Notes: generated by a model not told the origin, from the sequence alone. A stretch of DNA of 64,000 nt from an uncultured Chitinophagales bacterium (GCA_964358705.1 CAYHPL010000001.1:129202-193201), one strand, 5' to 3'; counted from the first letter of the stretch, positions 6,579 through 11,592 are shown. Numbers and translations: made by a program.

Positions 6579-7544
6579 ATGATAACGCAGAGACGCATTG
6601 CACCACACTGCGTCTCTGCACAATATGTACTTATGCTTGATATATCTAAAAAAATAAAGACTCTTCGTACCGCCGTTGCACAGGCAACACTCACGCTTTC
6701 TCCTGCAACAATTGCATTGCTGCGCGAAAATAAAATTCCCAAAGGCAATCCGCTCGAAGTGGCAAAAGTTGCAGCCATACAAGCCGCAAAAAACACAAGC
6801 CAGATTATTCCATACTGTCATCCGCTGCCGGTAGATTTTGCCGGTGTTACGTATGAAATTACCACGGCAACAATTATTGCAACAGTAACGGTAAAAGCAA
6901 TTTACAAAACCGGCGTAGAAATGGAAGCGCTCACTGCCGCATCTGTCTGTGTGCTGACATTGTACGATATGATGAAAATGCTCGACGAAGAAATGGAAAT
7001 CTCAGATATCAAACTCATCAGTAAAACCGGCGGCAAATCCGATTTTCGTGATACATTTGAAACACCGTTGCGTGCCGCAGTGCTTGTTATGTCCGATTCA
7101 ATTTCATCGGGAAAAAAAACTGATGCGTCGGGACAATTGATTGTCGAACGCTTAAAAAAAGAAAACGTAGAAATTGCCGACTATAAAATTATTCCCGATG
7201 ATGTAGAGACAATTGCAAAATTACTTATCACGTATGCCGACGAAATGAAACTTGATTTGGTAATCACTACCGGCGGTACAGGATTCAGTCCGCGCGATAC
7301 AACACCCGAAGCAATGCAAAAGATTATCGAACGCGAAATTCCCGGCATTCCCGAAACGATACGTGCGTATGGACAGGAACGAACGCCGTATGCAATGCTA
7401 TCACGCGGGAAGGCAGGAATTCGCGGCAACACAATTATAATGAATCTTCCCGGTTCAAAAAGAGGTGTCGCCGAGTCTCTCGATGCATTATTTCCGGTGG
7501 TGCTTCATTCATTGAAGATGCTGTGGGGCGGCGGGCATAAGTAA
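6579..7544 (+). CDS. moaC: bifunctional MoaC (cyclic pyranopterin monophosphate synthase) / MogA-MoaB-like molybdopterin adenylyltransferase fusion
   Basis: N-terminal half has MoaC motifs (MLDIS, KGNPLEVAKVAAIQAAKNTSQIIPYCHPLP, GVEMEALTAASV). C-terminal half has MogA/MoaB motifs (ITTGGTGFSPRD, GIPETIR, GSKRG). An alternative start at 6633 (MLDISKK) is possible. Confidence 0.8.
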   Translation: MITQRRIAPHCVSAQYVLMLDISKKIKTLRTAVAQATLTLSPATIALLRENKIPKGNPLEVAKVAAIQAAKNTSQIIPYCHPLPVDFAGVTYEITTATIIATVTVKAIYKTGVEMEALTAASVCVLTLYDMMKMLDEEMEISDIKLISKTGGKSDFRDTFETPLRAAVLVMSDSISSGKKTDASGQLIVERLKKENVEIADYKIIPDDVETIAKLLITYADEMKLDLVITTGGTGFSPRDTTPEAMQKIIEREIPGIPETIRAYGQERTPYAMLSRGKAGIRGNTIIMNLPGSKRGVAESLDALFPVVLHSLKMLWGGGHK

Positions 7545-7900
7545 GTCGAATAATAGATACATTTCATTTACAGCATTTCGGGACGGTCTTATTTAATTTG
7601 AATGCCAAATGATTTTGGTTGACACTCATTAATGAGAGCCATAACAGCTCCAATTTTATTTGGTCGTGATAGCTGATAAGTTTAAGAATCGTAATTGAGA
7701 GATTTCTCCTTCTTGCTGAACTCTTTGAAAAGAGTATAATGAGTGGTTTGAGCATTAGTTTCGTTAAATAAATTTTGAATTTTTTATTTGTATTTGAAAT
7801 CCATTCGGCTGTCAATTTGCACCAATCCGTTTTTGATTAAGCATTGGCGATTTGGCACATTTGCTTTTGCAGCCATTGAAACGTCCTAAAATGCGTTGGC

Positions 7901-10333
7901 TTATTTTTTCCAGTCATATTTTACGCTTCCACAATTACAACGAATTTTACTATTTACATTGTCAAAATTTTTCAATGCAACAAAGGATTTGCATTTTTCC
8001 TCTGAGCAATAAAATGTCTTGATTAGCTTTTTCACATCTTCCCAAAATACTTCAAGGTCGTTTATGTTTTCTTTAAATGAATTGTCATGTGAGGTTTTAT
8101 TTCCTATTAGAATTGGCGAAGCCAGAATACTATCAATGTTATTTTTTGTTTTCAAGTCTGCTGGTGATTGCTTGTTCACTCTGCTTTGAATAGAAGACAA
8201 AAGTTCATTCATCATTCTTTCCTCATTTCTGTCATTGAAACGAAATGCAAGGCCTGCTTCTATGTTAAATGCAATCTGTTTTAATTGTCTTTCAGCATAA
8301 CGTCTAATGTCATTACCAAGTCCATCAATATTCTTTGCCTTGAACTTGCCTTCAATTTTGGTTCTCAAATCTACAAGCGGAGTTTCAAAACTTGTTCCTT
8401 TTTCCGCTGTCCAAGAAAGTGATTTTATTACCCAATTATTCTTTTTTGCTTCACTTGAAGCAATATCAAAAAAATCTTTCTCGTGAGTTAATAATATGAT
8501 TTGAAAATCACTGAACTTATTTATTAGGAGTCGAATAAATCTTGTTCTATGCGTACTGTCAAAGCTTGAAATGACATCATCCAAAACAAAAAAATCATTT
8601 TCTTTATTAAATGCTTTAACAGAAGCCAAGAAGAAAGATAACCCTAAGCAATTTATATGACTTTCACTTAATAATGCAACTGGCGGTGTTTGCCTTTCGT
8701 TGTAAAATGTATATTCAATTGTAATTCCAGAGAGTTCGTCATTTTTGTCTTTAATTGGAACAAGCTTAATATCTTCAATTTTTTCATTCGGATTCATTTC
8801 AGTGTAAAAGCTGTTTATTTCATCCGAAAACATTGTTAAAAAACCTTCTAATGATTCTTCCTGCTTTTTTATAAAGTCAGTGTATAGGGCTTCGAAAGTT
8901 ACTTGCTGTTTAGTTAATATTTCTTCCTCTCTTTCAAGTTTCTTGTGAGCCACATAAGCGTCTAAAGCCCTTGAAAGTTTTGTATGTATATGTAATTTTT
9001 TGTTTTCCTTAATACTATCAGAAAGTGTTTTGGATTTTACTCTGGAGATGGAAATTAAGCCCTTAATTTCTTTGTCGTCAATTTTGATAAGCGAAAATTC
9101 TCTTAAAGGTTCGGTTGAAAAAATATCTTTTTTCAAATCTTCGCCAATAACTTTTATAGAATTTTGAATTTGCTCAATCGTCTTTTTTGTTGCTTCGTTT
9201 TCCTTTTCAGCAAGATGCTTTTCTTTTAGCAAACCGCTAATTACTGTATAGTTATTGCGAAGCAGCTTAGTAAGCTCTTCGCATTCTTCATTTAGTTTAT
9301 CTTGCTCTGCTTTAATTTCTTTTAAATCTTCAACTCTTTGATTTAATTCTTGTGCAAGTTTGAGTTTGTCCTTTTCTTGTTGACACAATGGACAAAAATT
9401 ATCTTTTACGATGTCCATTTTAATAACCTTTAAACCTTCCGAGAGTAATGCCAGTAGTTGAAGTTTACTTATTTTATCTGCATCTTTCCTTAATGCGATA
9501 AAGGATTTATAATAGTCATTGTATAAACTATGAATATTTGAAATCTCAATTTCTAAATCAGTTAATGTGTCCGCTATTTTGTTATGAAATGCAATTTGCT
9601 CAACAACTATTGTATCCTCTTTTGTTTCAATTGATTTAAGTGCAGTTTTTACATCCTTAAAAGATTTTATGTCCTTTTCAAGTTTTAATGGTGCAATTAC
9701 TTTCAATGCAGTTTCAAAAAACTGTTTTGAAGATGTTATATTTTGCCCCAAACTCTCTAAAAGAATTGCTTGTTGAGCACTTCGTTTATTACTAAATCCA
9801 CCAGCTTTTATTACTCGGGCAATTCGTCCGCCAACAAGCTTTAATAAACTGCGTAATTCTTGCACTTGGCTAAAGCCAATTATATTTTGTAAATGTTTTA
9901 GTTTGTCTCCTTTGGTTGCTATAATAAACTGAACCAAATCTCTGTATCGAAGAATTAAGTTCTCCGATTGCGATTGACTAAAATAACTTGCAAACTCCTT
10001 TGAGCTATTTGAGTTAAATGTTTTAAATAAATTGTTTATTGACTTTTCATTGTCAAGTAACCTGTTTGAATATTGAATTTCAATTTTTGCTTCATCACTT
10101 GGATTGAGAAATACATTTCTTAATGCGTTTTTTCCCTTGCCTCCAACTTCTTCTCCTGTCAAATGTTCAATGCTATCTTTATAGAACCACTCTAAAGCAT
10201 CTGTAATTGAACTTTTACCTGTTCCATTGTCGCCATAAATTAGTAAAGACTTCTTGTCGAGAGAAAGATTTAAACCTTCTCTAACACCTCTGATACCTGT
10301 GATGTTTATTGATTTAATTTTGTTCTTACTCAT
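7901..10333 (-). CDS. Rad50/SbcC-like SMC-family ATPase with zinc hook and C-terminal zinc ribbon (candidate defence ATPase)
   Basis: N-terminal Walker A (GDNGTGKSS), then a ~400-aa K/E/L-rich coiled-coil with a central CPLC hook. C-terminal ABC signature-like LSESH, Walker B (FFVLDDV), D-loop (SSFD), H-loop (LLTHE), then a ~170-aa tail with CSEEKC..CNCGS. The ATG at 10333 is preferred over the TTG at 10345. Confidence 0.75.
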   Translation of the reverse strand: MSKNKIKSINITGIRGVREGLNLSLDKKSLLIYGDNGTGKSSITDALEWFYKDSIEHLTGEEVGGKGKNALRNVFLNPSDEAKIEIQYSNRLLDNEKSINNLFKTFNSNSSKEFASYFSQSQSENLILRYRDLVQFIIATKGDKLKHLQNIIGFSQVQELRSLLKLVGGRIARVIKAGGFSNKRSAQQAILLESLGQNITSSKQFFETALKVIAPLKLEKDIKSFKDVKTALKSIETKEDTIVVEQIAFHNKIADTLTDLEIEISNIHSLYNDYYKSFIALRKDADKISKLQLLALLSEGLKVIKMDIVKDNFCPLCQQEKDKLKLAQELNQRVEDLKEIKAEQDKLNEECEELTKLLRNNYTVISGLLKEKHLAEKENEATKKTIEQIQNSIKVIGEDLKKDIFSTEPLREFSLIKIDDKEIKGLISISRVKSKTLSDSIKENKKLHIHTKLSRALDAYVAHKKLEREEEILTKQQVTFEALYTDFIKKQEESLEGFLTMFSDEINSFYTEMNPNEKIEDIKLVPIKDKNDELSGITIEYTFYNERQTPPVALLSESHINCLGLSFFLASVKAFNKENDFFVLDDVISSFDSTHRTRFIRLLINKFSDFQIILLTHEKDFFDIASSEAKKNNWVIKSLSWTAEKGTSFETPLVDLRTKIEGKFKAKNIDGLGNDIRRYAERQLKQIAFNIEAGLAFRFNDRNEERMMNELLSSIQSRVNKQSPADLKTKNNIDSILASPILIGNKTSHDNSFKENINDLEVFWEDVKKLIKTFYCSEEKCKSFVALKNFDNVNSKIRCNCGSVKYDWKK

Positions 10334-10529
10334 CTTCTTTGTCAATTTGTTTTAATTCCTTCTGAACTATTTCGTCCAAAGTGTTTTGAACATTTTTATC
10401 AGAAAGTTTTCCCTGACTGTAAAGCTCAACTAATGCATCAACGGTCTTTTTGTCGGCATTCGGAATATTATAGATTTCTGCAAAAAAATCATCAATTACG
10501 TCCTTTCCACTTTTTATATTATCGTCCAT
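10326..10529 (-). CDS. small acidic protein (67 aa), middle gene of the cassette
   Basis: Sits between the GIY-YIG and ATPase genes. Its stop overlaps the ATPase ATG (ATGAGTAA). Rich in D/E/K; no recognisable domain. The listed ORF start is a TTG; the internal ATG (MDDNIK) is preferred. Confidence 0.45.
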   Translation of the reverse strand: MDDNIKSGKDVIDDFFAEIYNIPNADKKTVDALVELYSQGKLSDKNVQNTLDEIVQKELKQIDKEDE

Positions 10530-10539
10530 AGTATTTGTT

Positions 10540-10995
10540 TTATTCAAAGTATTTCCAATCAATTATAAAATTTGCTTTTATCTTTTTTTCTAAAATTTCA
10601 AATCCTGATTTGTTGTTGCAAATCGGGTAAACACCATACTTTTCAACAAAGTCAAGAATAAAATAGCTTTCCAAATCTTCTATTCTATATTCCCAAAAGC
10701 TTTTAAGCATTTCAAAATTTATTATCGTGAATTTAAGTTGTCCAACTTTTCTATAATTTACAAGTCCTAAGTTTTTACTTTTTCCTTCAAAGTGACCAGT
10801 CAGCCGACTTCCCATACTATTCGTTTTTTTCTCACTCATTCCAATGTAAAGTAATTTTGATTTTTTGAATGGATATTGAATTTCGCATTCCGTTGTGAAA
10901 ATGAAATATAGTCCCACCAAACCTGCAAGAGGTTTGATATTTTGAATTTCAAAAGTCTTAGGCGTGTCAAAGTATATATTGAATTCATTTGTCAT
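10540..10995 (-). CDS. minimal GIY-YIG nuclease-domain protein
   Basis: GLYFIF...(18 aa)...LLYIGMS...RLTGHF plus downstream conserved E and N (ICNNK). Genuine ATG start. Confidence 0.7.
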   Translation of the reverse strand: MTNEFNIYFDTPKTFEIQNIKPLAGLVGLYFIFTTECEIQYPFKKSKLLYIGMSEKKTNSMGSRLTGHFEGKSKNLGLVNYRKVGQLKFTIINFEMLKSFWEYRIEDLESYFILDFVEKYGVYPICNNKSGFEILEKKIKANFIIDWKYFE

Positions 10996-11592
10996 ACGGT
11001 TGATGTACGGTCGGGTAAAAGCAAATGTGCTGCAACTGTGTTGGCTTGTGGGTGGAGATGCAGTATTTTTTTATTTTTCTGATGCGTTGGATTTTTTGTT
11101 CATTTTTCTGTCAGTCTGTTTGATGTTGCACCGTCGTCACAGCATTACTCCAACATCTAATATGCGCTACAAATATATTTTTTATAGCGCAAATCCGCAA
11201 TAAAAGTGTTGGATTAACGCAGGTTTTTGGCTTTTTGAGTAGTGCATATCTACAGCAGTTTATCAAATGGCTATTGTCGTTAAATATTTCTTTGTTTCTT
11301 CTGTAAAGATTTTTCGTGGTTGAAAATTGGCTTCATTTTCTTTGGCAAAAGATAGGGATTGCGGAGAAATAGTGCAAGGGGAAAGAAATCCCGCTCACTC
11401 ACTTTTCAATGGAGAATTATTGCACAGGTATCAGATTACGTATATCGTAAATCTCAAATCCCCGATTTTCATATTGTAGCATAATCAATATTTCTTTCGC
11501 TCCACAAATCTAAAAAGGAAAAATGTTCTTTGTATATTTTCGCGCAATTTTTAGAATGCACAACGAGTTTTCCCCACGATTTTTTTTAAAGA

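Follow-up and report, generated by a model that had tools for sequence, protein, structure and literature searches.

Three adjacent genes in the genome of an uncultured Chitinophagales bacterium raise the question of whether they form a defence system and, if so, of what kind. They lie in a window of 64,000 nt (the whole stretch of DNA analysed; GCA_964358705.1 CAYHPL010000001.1:129202-193201). A sequence-only reading had described them, at 7901-10995, as three coupled minus-strand genes encoding a GIY-YIG nuclease, a small acidic protein and a zinc-hook ATPase, set in an island of about 30% GC between moaC-mog and gcvP. This description holds in most respects: the ORFs are found where they had been placed, 10 nt separate the stop of the GIY-YIG-like gene from the ATG of the small gene, and the stop of the latter overlaps the start of the ATPase gene in ATGAGTAA (both read in the sequence). 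Furthermore, GC content is 0.29-0.33 over 8000-11000 against 0.37-0.46 in the flanks, and the neighbours are those proposed. The extent, however, holds for the genes only, the conserved mobile unit being larger, roughly 7860..11158. The features of the locus are as follows.

6579..7544, flanking gene, MoaC+MoCF_biosynth fusion
7855..7900, minus strand, short conserved 3' tail, including the left arm of an inverted repeat
7901 (stop) to 10333 (ATG), minus strand, ATPase gene, 810 aa
7904..8008, minus strand, C-terminal zinc ribbon of the ATPase, residues 776-810 (C776, C781, C799, C801)
8009..8386, minus strand, HEPN-fold domain of the ATPase, residues ~650-775, with invariant R677-x3-E681-x3-K685, N745 and S748-H749-D750
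8444..10333, minus strand, ABC ATPase core, residues 1-630 of 810 (Pfam SMC_N, AAA_23)
9383..9394, minus strand, zinc-hook motif C314-P-L-C317, midway along the coiled-coil insert
10326..10529, minus strand, gene for the small acidic protein (ATG 10529, stop 10326), 67 aa, pI 4.3
10540..10995, minus strand, gene for a putative stand-alone GIY-YIG-like nuclease, 151 aa, basic, pI 8.7
10996..11158, minus strand, conserved non-coding leader with the motifs GCACATTTGCTTTT (11017-11030) and CCAACGCA
11140..11225, minus strand, imperfect hairpin of 86 nt, ends TCCAAC / GTTGGA, at the point where upstream homology breaks off
11593 onwards, flanking gene, GcvP

Each of the three proteins has from hundreds to about 1,500 homologue clusters and the gene order is conserved, thus indicating real genes and not chance ORFs. 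The sequence-only reading had named two outcomes that would speak against it, namely that the three genes never co-occur in other genomes, or that the ATPase sits in the conserved context of a housekeeping SbcC/RecN. In effect, of 81 related loci, which come from several phyla and extend down to ATPases 41% identical, 76 have the trio together in the same order, GIY-YIG-like gene included, and genomic context differs in every locus examined. The small gene lies upstream of the ATPase gene in 78 of the 81, and a plasmid relative at 30% identity has all three genes. Members occur in Bacteroidota, Ignavibacteriota, Chloroflexota, Planctomycetota and Nitrospirota-like MAGs and, more distantly, in Alphaproteobacteria; occurrence is patchy, and near-identical copies turn up in different phyla. 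Among Flavobacteriales, Ignavibacteria, Paludibacter and Emticicia protein identity is 84-93%, and the loci of these groups have in common only a unit of ~3.3 kb, inserted at sites without flanking homology. Some copies reside at plasmid or Tn7-like locations, an RM system and a tyrosine recombinase adjoin the trio in Aequorivita, and in many loci the unit has no adjacent recombinase. The trio is therefore a conserved, horizontally moving accessory module and, as had been claimed, not a housekeeping SbcCD. A scan of viral contigs retrieved no relative of the cassette, which is neutral as to defence.

The ~3.3 kb unit is a horizontally mobile integron gene cassette, a feature that the sequence-only reading had not noted. 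An attC site, the mark of such cassettes, is an imperfect palindrome with …AAC and GTT… ends that keeps its structure but not its sequence. In related loci an attC-like site of ~131 nt lies downstream of it; TAACA and CGT are invariant in these sites, 17 of the 19 stem pairs show compensatory changes, and the sites recur in same-strand arrays, up to eight per array. The window copy has no such ~131-nt site, the attC-like model R1 finding nothing, and no IntI was identified with certainty. At its upstream end, nucleotide homology to other loci stops at ~11149-11158, within the 86-nt hairpin, whose DNA fold of -16.8 kcal/mol (z = -5.0) was equalled in stability by none of 200 shuffled sequences. 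The hairpin may be an attC-like remnant, an assignment that we keep tentative because model R1 misses it. The leader probably holds the cassette promoter; a scan for promoters and terminators gave no excess over the shuffled expectation. A perfect 14-nt inverted repeat pairs 7855-7868 in the 3' tail with 11017-11030 in the leader. The non-coding ends have no match in Rfam, and no tRNA genes lie near the cassette.

The largest of the three proteins is an ABC ATPase with a Walker A motif at G34-S42 (K40), a coiled-coil insert, a signature-like LSESH (555-559), a Walker B motif FFVLDD (581-586) and the H-loop LTHE. K40, D585/D586 and the other ATPase motifs are invariant in 30 homologues, as is the zinc hook, which is kept as CPFC in the relative at 30% identity and as CPKC in one at 22%. 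A CxxC hook is also present in Rad50 and RloC (PMC2610378). Profile searches of the PDB with the ATPase matched only Rad50 and SMC heads, and none of the solved LmuB/DdmC chains even at E<=10. In PADLOC the best family is LmuB (PDLC03859; E 1.7e-22, with a modest score of 78 bits), matched over profile positions 4-599 of 611; the relative at 30% identity scores 94 bits. This similarity is restricted to the ATPase core of the 810-aa protein, and a match to Pfam AAA_13, the PrrC/RloC family, is also confined to the ATPase part. The labels 'SbcC-like' (PHROG) and 'SbcCD ATPase subunit' (JGI) occur as well, but NCBIfam and PHROGs yielded no specific match.

The sequence-only reading had added to this ATPase an extra C-terminal zinc ribbon. 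The ribbon is indeed present, its four cysteines invariant in the 30 homologues and conserved in distant relatives too, with beta strands at residues ~786-807 (local 157-178) in the predicted structure; but it does not stand by itself, since a HEPN domain with conserved RNase-type residues precedes it, the two together making up the last ~180 residues. The domain forms the four-helix up-down bundle of the HEPN fold, and R677, E681, K685, S748 and H749 are invariant in the 30 homologues and kept at 22-30% identity. Of the HEPN active-site elements, the acidic E-x3-[KR] has its counterpart in E681-x3-K685 and H749 is invariant, but the residue four positions before the His is N745 and not Arg; the Arg of the canonical HEPN R-x4-6-H is thus absent, and Arg comes instead as R677-x3-E. 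The R-x3-E arrangement has also been reported for PrrC/RloC (PMC2610378, PMC3710099), while the spacing from Glu to His is 67 residues here versus 36-52 in RloC. When the C-terminal domain was searched exhaustively with phmmer, only its own family (143 clusters) came up, so that homology to the RloC nuclease domain is not demonstrated by sequence; a PDB sequence search gave no useful match. Given a C-terminus composed of HEPN domain and ribbon with conserved RNase-type residues, the ATPase would itself be an RloC-like effector.

We regard the 151-aa protein as a probable GIY-YIG nuclease of the stand-alone kind, similar to T4 EndoII. It has the alpha/beta fold of the superfamily, with conserved Arg, His/Tyr, Glu and Asn after the GIY and YIG strands, and this single nuclease fold fills nearly all of its length; the candidate catalytic set is Y30, Y50, R64, H68, E106/E109 and N127/N128. 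Its Pfam GIY-YIG score of 18.7 bits is below the cut-off of 22.4, and no model in PADLOC, NCBIfam or Pfam was matched above threshold. Foldseek of the predicted model against the PDB gave no significant match, a PDB sequence search gave no useful match, and hhalign of the family alignment against a sequence of the I-TevI catalytic domain gave no match either, both profiles being too shallow for this to be informative. Phage T4 endonuclease II (DenA), also a stand-alone GIY-YIG nuclease, shares 15% identity with the cassette protein, in which the GIY…YIG spacing is 20 residues. This partner has about 1,500 clusters at 90% identity. Its conservation is unusually strong, at 72-78% identity between loci whose ATPases share 47-65%. 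At one locus (L022) an ORF in place of the GIY-YIG-like gene was first taken as RhuM-like, an assignment dropped when Pfam gave nothing.

The 67-aa protein between them looks like three helices when its sequence is judged by eye. It belongs to no family in Pfam, PADLOC, NCBIfam or PHROGs, and is always free-standing (60-85 aa); relatives at 22-30% identity also have it upstream of the ATPase. Its conserved motif reads KSG..VI.eFF..I…D.kt…L..Ly…Kl…Ni.Nal, and its variability across loci is no greater than that of the ATPase. With respect to LmuC, no PADLOC or Pfam match was found, whereas position and translational coupling are LmuC-like.

Which known system does this combination approach? The view that no named system fits is upheld, since the trio is unnamed in PADLOC, NCBIfam, Pfam and PHROGs, as well as in the literature searched. 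In RloC the triad is Arg-x3-Glu-x36-52-His, often with Ser before the His, and a DNA-dependent ATPase activates the RNase (PMC2610378, PMC3458546); what naturally triggers RloC-type enzymes has yet to be clarified (PMC3458546). Compared by its published description, RloC of Geobacillus kaustophilus resembles the cassette ATPase in length (804 versus 810 aa), in an N-terminal ABC ATPase interrupted by a coiled coil (hook C288/C291 in RloC, C314/C317 here), in a C-terminal R-x3-E … S-H (R692/E696/H737 in RloC, R677/E681/H749 here) and in lateral transfer as a unit. In contrast, RloC is described as a single gene while the cassette ATPase has two conserved partner genes, and the Cys4 ribbon that follows the HEPN domain here is not mentioned in the RloC descriptions. 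The ATPase thus has the RloC architecture, HEPN plus zinc hook, yet sequence searches link it more closely to LmuB. PrrC-EcoprrI provides a parallel of another kind, in that a DNA-targeting nuclease and an ABC-ATPase-HEPN RNase are the two arms of a single locus (PMC3710099); PrrC, however, is without coiled coil or zinc hook and is paired with a type Ic R-M system that includes a methylase, whereas the cassette has a bare GIY-YIG protein and no modification enzyme. The DndD-type systems combine a DndD/PbeC ATPase, a CxC hook and a DndE (RHH) partner (PMC10853773). We rejected this assignment, as the hook is CxxC and the small protein has no RHH match; no DndD/PbeC model is among the PADLOC matches of the ATPase or of its 30% relative, the presence of such models in PADLOC being unconfirmed.

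On balance we lean towards a self-contained mobile module that acts against phages or plasmids by abortive infection and has two nucleases, its logic part RloC-like and part Lamassu-like. The scheme that we infer for its biochemical activities, trigger, complex and defence phenotype would run as follows. The core would be an RloC-like sensor-effector, that is, a Rad50/SbcC-like ABC ATPase with a CxxC hook at the end of its coiled coil and a C-terminal HEPN RNase plus ribbon. The translationally coupled, acidic and helical 67-aa protein would act as adaptor or regulator of the ATPase, in the manner of LmuC or of the tail by which SbcD/Mre11 binds Rad50, and an EndoII-like stand-alone GIY-YIG DNase would be the second effector. 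Both nucleases would be held silent by the ATPase dimer. Binding of the ATPase to the invader's DNA ends, or to aberrant replication intermediates, would stimulate ATP hydrolysis, whereupon coiled coil and hook would rearrange; the HEPN RNase would be unleashed to cut tRNA or mRNA, stopping translation, and the GIY-YIG nuclease would be released or activated to cut DNA. It is also conceivable, though we rather doubt it, that the two nucleases work in relay, the GIY-YIG enzyme making, or being licensed for, breaks in invader DNA whose ends the ATPase and small adaptor sense before firing the HEPN RNase. If so, a single integron cassette of 3.3 kb, moving between phyla, would couple restriction to abortive infection, and the activating signal long sought for RloC-type enzymes would have a defined source within the locus itself.

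In an alternative scenario, which we hold to be unlikely, the cassette is a true Lamassu: the ATPase would be LmuB, the 67-aa protein a miniature LmuC and the GIY-YIG protein a new LmuA, with the HEPN/ribbon tail as an add-on. By the corresponding mechanism, to which we give the same low credence, LmuB/C would sequester monomeric LmuA until the sensing of DNA ends released it to oligomerise and degrade DNA. The likeness to Lamassu or ABC-three-component systems pointed out from the sequence is in fact borne out in part. The order nuclease, small protein, SMC-like ATPase is that of type II Lamassu/DdmABC, and LmuB is the best PADLOC family of both the window protein and its 30% relative; but at E<=1 none of the PADLOC models for LmuA or LmuC matches the GIY-YIG-like or the small protein, and Lamassu membership is therefore not established. 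As to ABC-3C, the same two proteins match no Pfam family at E<=1 beyond noise in a 2025 copy that presumably includes the ABC-3C families. The effector had further been called bare for lack of a DUF3732-type LmuA core; LmuA matches are indeed missing, but DUF3732 is the domain of type I LmuB and not the core of LmuA. In the accessible part of a Lamassu study, zinc hooks occur in some LmuB clades, LmuC lies directly before LmuB, effectors are modular, and LmuA contacts LmuB/C through a conserved C-terminal domain, which a linker joins to the N-terminal effector domain; the effector types named there are Cap4, Mrr, protease, Sir2, lipase and hydrolase, with no mention of GIY-YIG (10.1101/2025.04.02.646746). 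A protein of 151 aa leaves no room for such a linker and C-terminal domain. Likewise, no solved LmuB/DdmC chain resembled the ATPase, and its own conserved nuclease-type domain, fused as HEPN and ribbon, has no counterpart mentioned in the Lamassu descriptions as far as these are accessible.

The integron setting suggests another possibility, which we judge quite improbable: an addiction cassette of toxin-antitoxin type that stabilises the arrays, with the nuclease(s) as toxin, the acidic protein as labile antitoxin, and phage defence secondary or absent. Toxin-antitoxin cassettes are common in chromosomal integrons, the trio does occur in attC-like arrays, some copies have HigB and MNT genes nearby, and translational coupling links the small acidic protein to a basic protein that bears a nuclease. 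However, a simple pair would not need a zinc-hook ATPase of the DNA-binding type, 630 aa long, the trio persists outside arrays and between housekeeping genes (in this window and at locus L094), and the small protein is no more variable than the ATPase. The two remaining readings were rejected, both being highly improbable. The closest solved relatives, Rad50 and SMC heads, and the PHROG and JGI labels might point to a DNA-repair or housekeeping SbcCD-like machine with the GIY-YIG nuclease replacing SbcD/Mre11. SbcCD/Mre11-Rad50 shares the ABC head with zinc-hook coiled coil and a nuclease gene upstream of the ATPase gene, and the small protein stands where, according to the same study, the SbcC-binding tail of SbcD would be encoded (10.1101/2025.04.02.646746). 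Yet the cassette has no Mre11/SbcD phosphoesterase (the neighbours being MoaC-Mog and GcvP), its coiled coil is much shorter and its ATPase has a fused HEPN domain; patchy, near-identical copies across phyla, cassette and plasmid/Tn7-like locations, a GC content atypical for the host region and a non-conserved context also argue against such a machine. GIY-YIG enzymes include homing endonucleases, so one could instead imagine a selfish homing or mobility module whose nuclease cuts target DNA to spread the cassette while the ATPase aids repair-mediated copying, consistent with the strong conservation of the nuclease relative to the ATPase and with the many loci without adjacent recombinase; but the attC-like sites and arrays already explain mobility, the insertion sites share no flanking homology, and the GIY-YIG protein has no DNA-recognition domain.

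If the abortive-infection module that we favour is a working defence system, it would be a new family in the ABC-ATPase defence group, the module being unnamed and widespread. It bridges a feature of RloC, the fused HEPN RNase, and features of Lamassu, the separate nuclease and the small middle protein; the combination could therefore help to show one Rad50-like sensor controlling different effectors. The dedicated DNase partner, in turn, offers a testable route to RloC activation. Defence systems are known to be carried in integron cassettes (10.1101/2024.07.02.601719). As in these BRiCs (e.g., brc128, Lamassu type I-like), a defence-like system is here borne as a cassette with an attC-type site, whereas this one occurs mainly in Bacteroidota and further environmental phyla rather than in clinical mobile integrons, and is large (~3.3 kb, three genes) with other protein content. 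A three-gene cassette in environmental Bacteroidota-type arrays carries the view that integrons serve as biobanks of defence further than Vibrio and the clinical integrons. The neighbours of the trio in these arrays include cassettes for Mrr-type (type IV) restriction enzymes.

Three minus-strand open reading frames (ORFs) make up the trio in the window:

10540..10995, minus strand, GIY-YIG-like gene (151-aa ORF)
ATG 10529, stop 10326, minus strand, small gene (67-aa ORF)
ATG 10333, stop 7901, minus strand, ATPase gene (810-aa ORF)

A gap of 10 nt separates the GIY-YIG gene stop from the small-gene ATG, and the small-gene stop overlaps the ATPase start at ATGAGTAA. ORF calls and the sequence agree on all points with this arrangement as described in the sequence-only reading, which had also placed the genes in a low-GC island between housekeeping loci. 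The island is real: GC content is 0.29-0.33 across 8000-11000 versus 0.37-0.46 on both sides, and the trio is flanked by a MoaC+MoCF_biosynth fusion and GcvP. Further left lies an M28 peptidase bearing a type IX secretion sorting domain, a sign of a Bacteroidota-like host. An identical copy of the locus is carried by a groundwater metagenome contig.

The co-occurrence of the three genes, on which the same reading hinged, is upheld in other genomes. Scans of genomes and of metagenomes gave 90 related loci in all, and partners were counted in the 81 in which the ATPase gene is preceded by 720 nt or more. The GIY-YIG gene is found in 76 and the small gene in 78 of these, in identical order throughout, and this order holds down to 41% ATPase identity. 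Five loci are without one or both partners. Two of these (L079, L089) are truncated genes at contig ends. In L055, with an IS transposase upstream, a 619-aa transposase-like ORF (988-2847) replaces both. The other two are Chryseobacterium loci (L008:5173-9596 and L009) encoding the small protein and an ATPase of 61% identity and no GIY-YIG gene; the L009 ATPase reading frame is broken into two. Outside the 81, in a locus with 678 nt upstream (L022), the GIY-YIG gene gives way to a partial ORF (L022:3-464, 153 aa) that is unrelated to it and has no match in Pfam. Copies at 84-93% ATPase identity occur in Epilithonimonas, Ignavibacterium, Paludibacter, Emticicia and Ferruginibacter, and more distant ones carry the labels Chloroflexota, Thermodesulfovibrionales and Ca. 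Wunengus. No relative of the trio was found in the viral contigs scanned.

The comparison of loci also delimits the mobile unit. Nucleotide homology spans approximately 7860..11158 of the window and ends there, and the MoaC and GcvP flanks are common to no other locus compared. In at least 11 loci the ATPase stop is followed, after ~140 nt, by an element of ~131 nt composed of TAACA, a stem of ~20 bp, a variable centre, the complementary stem and CGTT. Examples, together with a second conserved hairpin, are:

L011:7574-7704, after the ATPase stop, attC-like site (~131-nt element)
L001:8559-8689, after the ATPase stop, attC-like site (~131-nt element)
L015:7570-7700, after the ATPase stop, attC-like site (~131-nt element)
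L011:7434-7530, between ATPase stop and attC-like site, second hairpin GGTAGCACATTTGCATTTTTT…AAAAAAATGCAAAAGAGCTACC

In an alignment of ten elements the stem sequences vary while complementarity is kept, with compensatory double changes in 17 of the 19 predicted pairs. A covariance model built from these ten, and then used to find further copies, revealed same-strand arrays of 8 sites in L015 and ~7 each in L070 and L093, and several same-strand sites each in L029, L027, L059 and L001. Covarying stems and same-strand arrays are the hallmark of attC sites in integrons, and thus the trio is an integron gene cassette in those loci. In Aequorivita soesokkakensis (L093, LXIE01000001.1) a 280-aa tyrosine recombinase (L093:7816-8658) is encoded 1.2 kb before the trio and shares the strand of the cassettes; the attC-like sites and an RM system follow it downstream. 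This recombinase may be an integron integrase, of the type with 'inverted' orientation. The neighbour cassettes in L015 (9405-10292 and 10495-11295) encode a Mrr-type type IV restriction enzyme, labelled mREase_IV / PDC-S02 by PADLOC, and a HARE-HTH protein. Defence systems on integron cassettes are documented, including a Lamassu type I-like pair (10.1101/2024.07.02.601719).

The second hairpin recurs at the equivalent region in L001, L003, L012, L015, L017 and L023, is flanked by GCCAACGCA direct repeats, and from locus to locus the two arms covary (GGTGGC/GCCACC, CACTC/GAGTG). No Rfam family matched it; it may act as a terminator or have a regulatory role. The window itself carries a different set of boundary features:

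11140-11225, minus strand, imperfect 86-nt hairpin with TCCAAC/GTTGGA ends (fold z = -5.0)
7855-7868 and 11017-11030, perfect 14-nt inverted repeat GCACATTTGCTTTT, bracketing the three genes
7891-7910 and 11082-11101, 20-nt direct repeat ATGCGTTGG…, bracketing the three genes

The covariance model of the ~131-nt sites gives no match at the window's own copy, the 86-nt hairpin included. This hairpin is placed exactly at the upstream breakpoint of homology to the other cassettes, and may be a short attC-like remnant. Neither repeat has another copy within the 64-kb window, and in other loci the downstream copy of the 14-nt repeat is in direct, not inverted, orientation. Its CACATTTG core lies 27 nt before the GIY-YIG ATG and resembles the Bacteroidetes -7 promoter element, TAnnTTTG.

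Residues 1-630 of the 810-aa protein form an SMC/Rad50-type ABC ATPase. Pfam SMC_N and AAA_23 are matched (some family members also reach AAA_13, over the ATPase part only), and PDB sequence and profile searches matched Rad50 and SMC heads. Midway through the coiled-coil insert, CPLC (residues 314-317) is kept unchanged by all of 30 homologues (51-90% identity). Among PADLOC families the best match is LmuB (PDLC03859, E 1.7e-22), which is matched over almost its entire 611 positions, yet only by residues 5-631. To the zinc ribbon that the sequence-only reading had noted at the C-terminus, the same 30 homologues lend four invariant cysteines (C776, C781, C799, C801); the ribbon does not stand alone, however, a predicted HEPN-type domain preceding it. 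Invariant here are D670-GLGNDIR677-x-Y-x-E681-x3-K685, N745 and S748-H749-D750, and the HEPN helix-1 motif is E-x3-K (PMC3710099).

The overall layout is nearly superimposable on that of RloC, an 804-aa protein with Walker A K44, hook C288/C291, Walker B D572 and triad R692/E696/H737 (PMC2610378, PMC3458546), the corresponding residues being K40, C314/C317, D585 and R677/E681/H749. The PrrC/RloC anticodon-nuclease triad reads Arg-X3-Glu-X36-52-His, often with Ser before His (PMC2610378), and the R-x3-E … S-H pattern is shared. In contrast, the spacing is 67 residues rather than 36-52, the Arg 4-6 residues before His is missing, and the C-terminal zinc ribbon sets the protein apart. With the C-terminal domain as query, exhaustive phmmer searching across 1.84 billion representatives returned 143 clusters only, nearly all C-termini of ~800-aa proteins or their fragments, and no match demonstrating homology to the RloC nuclease domain. 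The domain is thus private to this ATPase family, and its likeness to the RloC nuclease is one of architecture and residue pattern only.

The 151-aa protein is very probably a GIY-YIG nuclease. It is indeed the bare domain previously proposed, similar in size to EndoII, but its Pfam matches are below threshold (GIY_YIG_2 18.7 bits, GIY-YIG 15.9 bits). The assignment comes from G28-L-Y30, Y50-I-G52, R64, H68, E106/E109 and N127/N128, which are invariant among homologues and match the GIY-YIG catalytic pattern; the spacer between the two GIY-YIG strands is long, at 20 residues. There are ~1,500 homologue clusters, the best 120 all at least 73% identical. It is the most conserved of the trio (72-78% identity where the ATPase shows 47-65% and the small protein 52-63%), which is unusual for a defence effector. 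The small protein (pI 4.3; family median 4.5) looks by eye like three helices, is always free-standing among homologues, and has no match in Pfam, PADLOC, NCBIfam or PHROGs. It stays longest with the ATPase, outlasting the GIY-YIG gene, as in the Chryseobacterium variant and a 22% Phaeobacter plasmid relative. The study 10.1101/2025.04.02.646746 puts LmuC directly before LmuB and the SbcC-binding tail of SbcD at a comparable position. By analogy with this placement, just before a Rad50-like ATPase and translationally coupled to it, the protein might be an adaptor or regulator.

Taken as a whole, the evidence supports an accessory, mobile conflict module whose centre is a DNA-sensing, Rad50-like ATPase and whose two effectors are of the nuclease type. 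As in RloC, a predicted HEPN effector is fused to the ATPase; as in type II Lamassu, a separate effector, here GIY-YIG, stands behind a small middle protein. True membership of Lamassu, which the LmuB match might suggest, is opposed by the absence of the LmuA C-terminal domain from the 151-aa protein and of any LmuC match for the small one; PDB searches with the ATPase matched no Lamassu chain, even at E<=10. Other rival readings would make the trio an addiction or TA element of cassette arrays, an SbcCD-like repair machine or a homing element. The trio falls outside ABC-3C, DndD/CxC and SbcCD as these are defined.

We rate this putative conflict module among the ABC-ATPase-nuclease defence systems, mixing RloC and Lamassu features; since precedents exist for all of its parts and for its logic as a whole, it is not new in kind. 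That it could be assigned to no named system still holds: the GIY-YIG and small proteins are named by no model in PADLOC (2023), NCBIfam (June 2026), Pfam (2025) or PHROGs, and the trio is undescribed in the searchable literature. In RloC, the DNA-dependent ATPase and zinc hook switch the RNase on (PMC3458546), and in Lamassu, DNA-end sensing releases the nuclease (10.1101/2025.04.02.646746). Extrapolating from both, we infer every functional step of the most likely mechanism: once the ATPase has bound DNA ends or replication intermediates, its hydrolysis of ATP would switch on both the HEPN RNase and the GIY-YIG DNase, and the activated nucleases would abort infection. Widespread, cross-phylum, compact and cassette-borne, the trio is directly testable, its defence role being a prediction.

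Partners differ among relatives. In the Chryseobacterium variant an HTH_26 protein is encoded upstream, and downstream there are two genes without annotation (129 and 226 aa); the D…ECK pattern of the 226-aa product might point to a PD-(D/E)xK nuclease. On an Aliiroseovarius crassostreae plasmid (L091, NZ_CP080785.1, 172750-179421) the trio, at 30% ATPase identity and with the zinc hook kept as CPFC, adjoins a Tn7-like tniQ/tniB/Mu-transposase module, and its GIY-YIG gene is divergently transcribed. The 22% relative, on Phaeobacter inhibens plasmid pP88_b (L092, 108283-110909), is without a GIY-YIG gene. Its zinc hook (CPKC) and zinc ribbon are retained, as are R-x3-E-x3-R and T-H, and a 58-aa gene upstream overlaps it. 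Upstream, the Phaeobacter locus also has two divergent genes (176 and 201 aa) without annotation. Such retention at 22% identity shows a wider predicted ABC-HEPN-zinc-ribbon superfamily whose partners vary.
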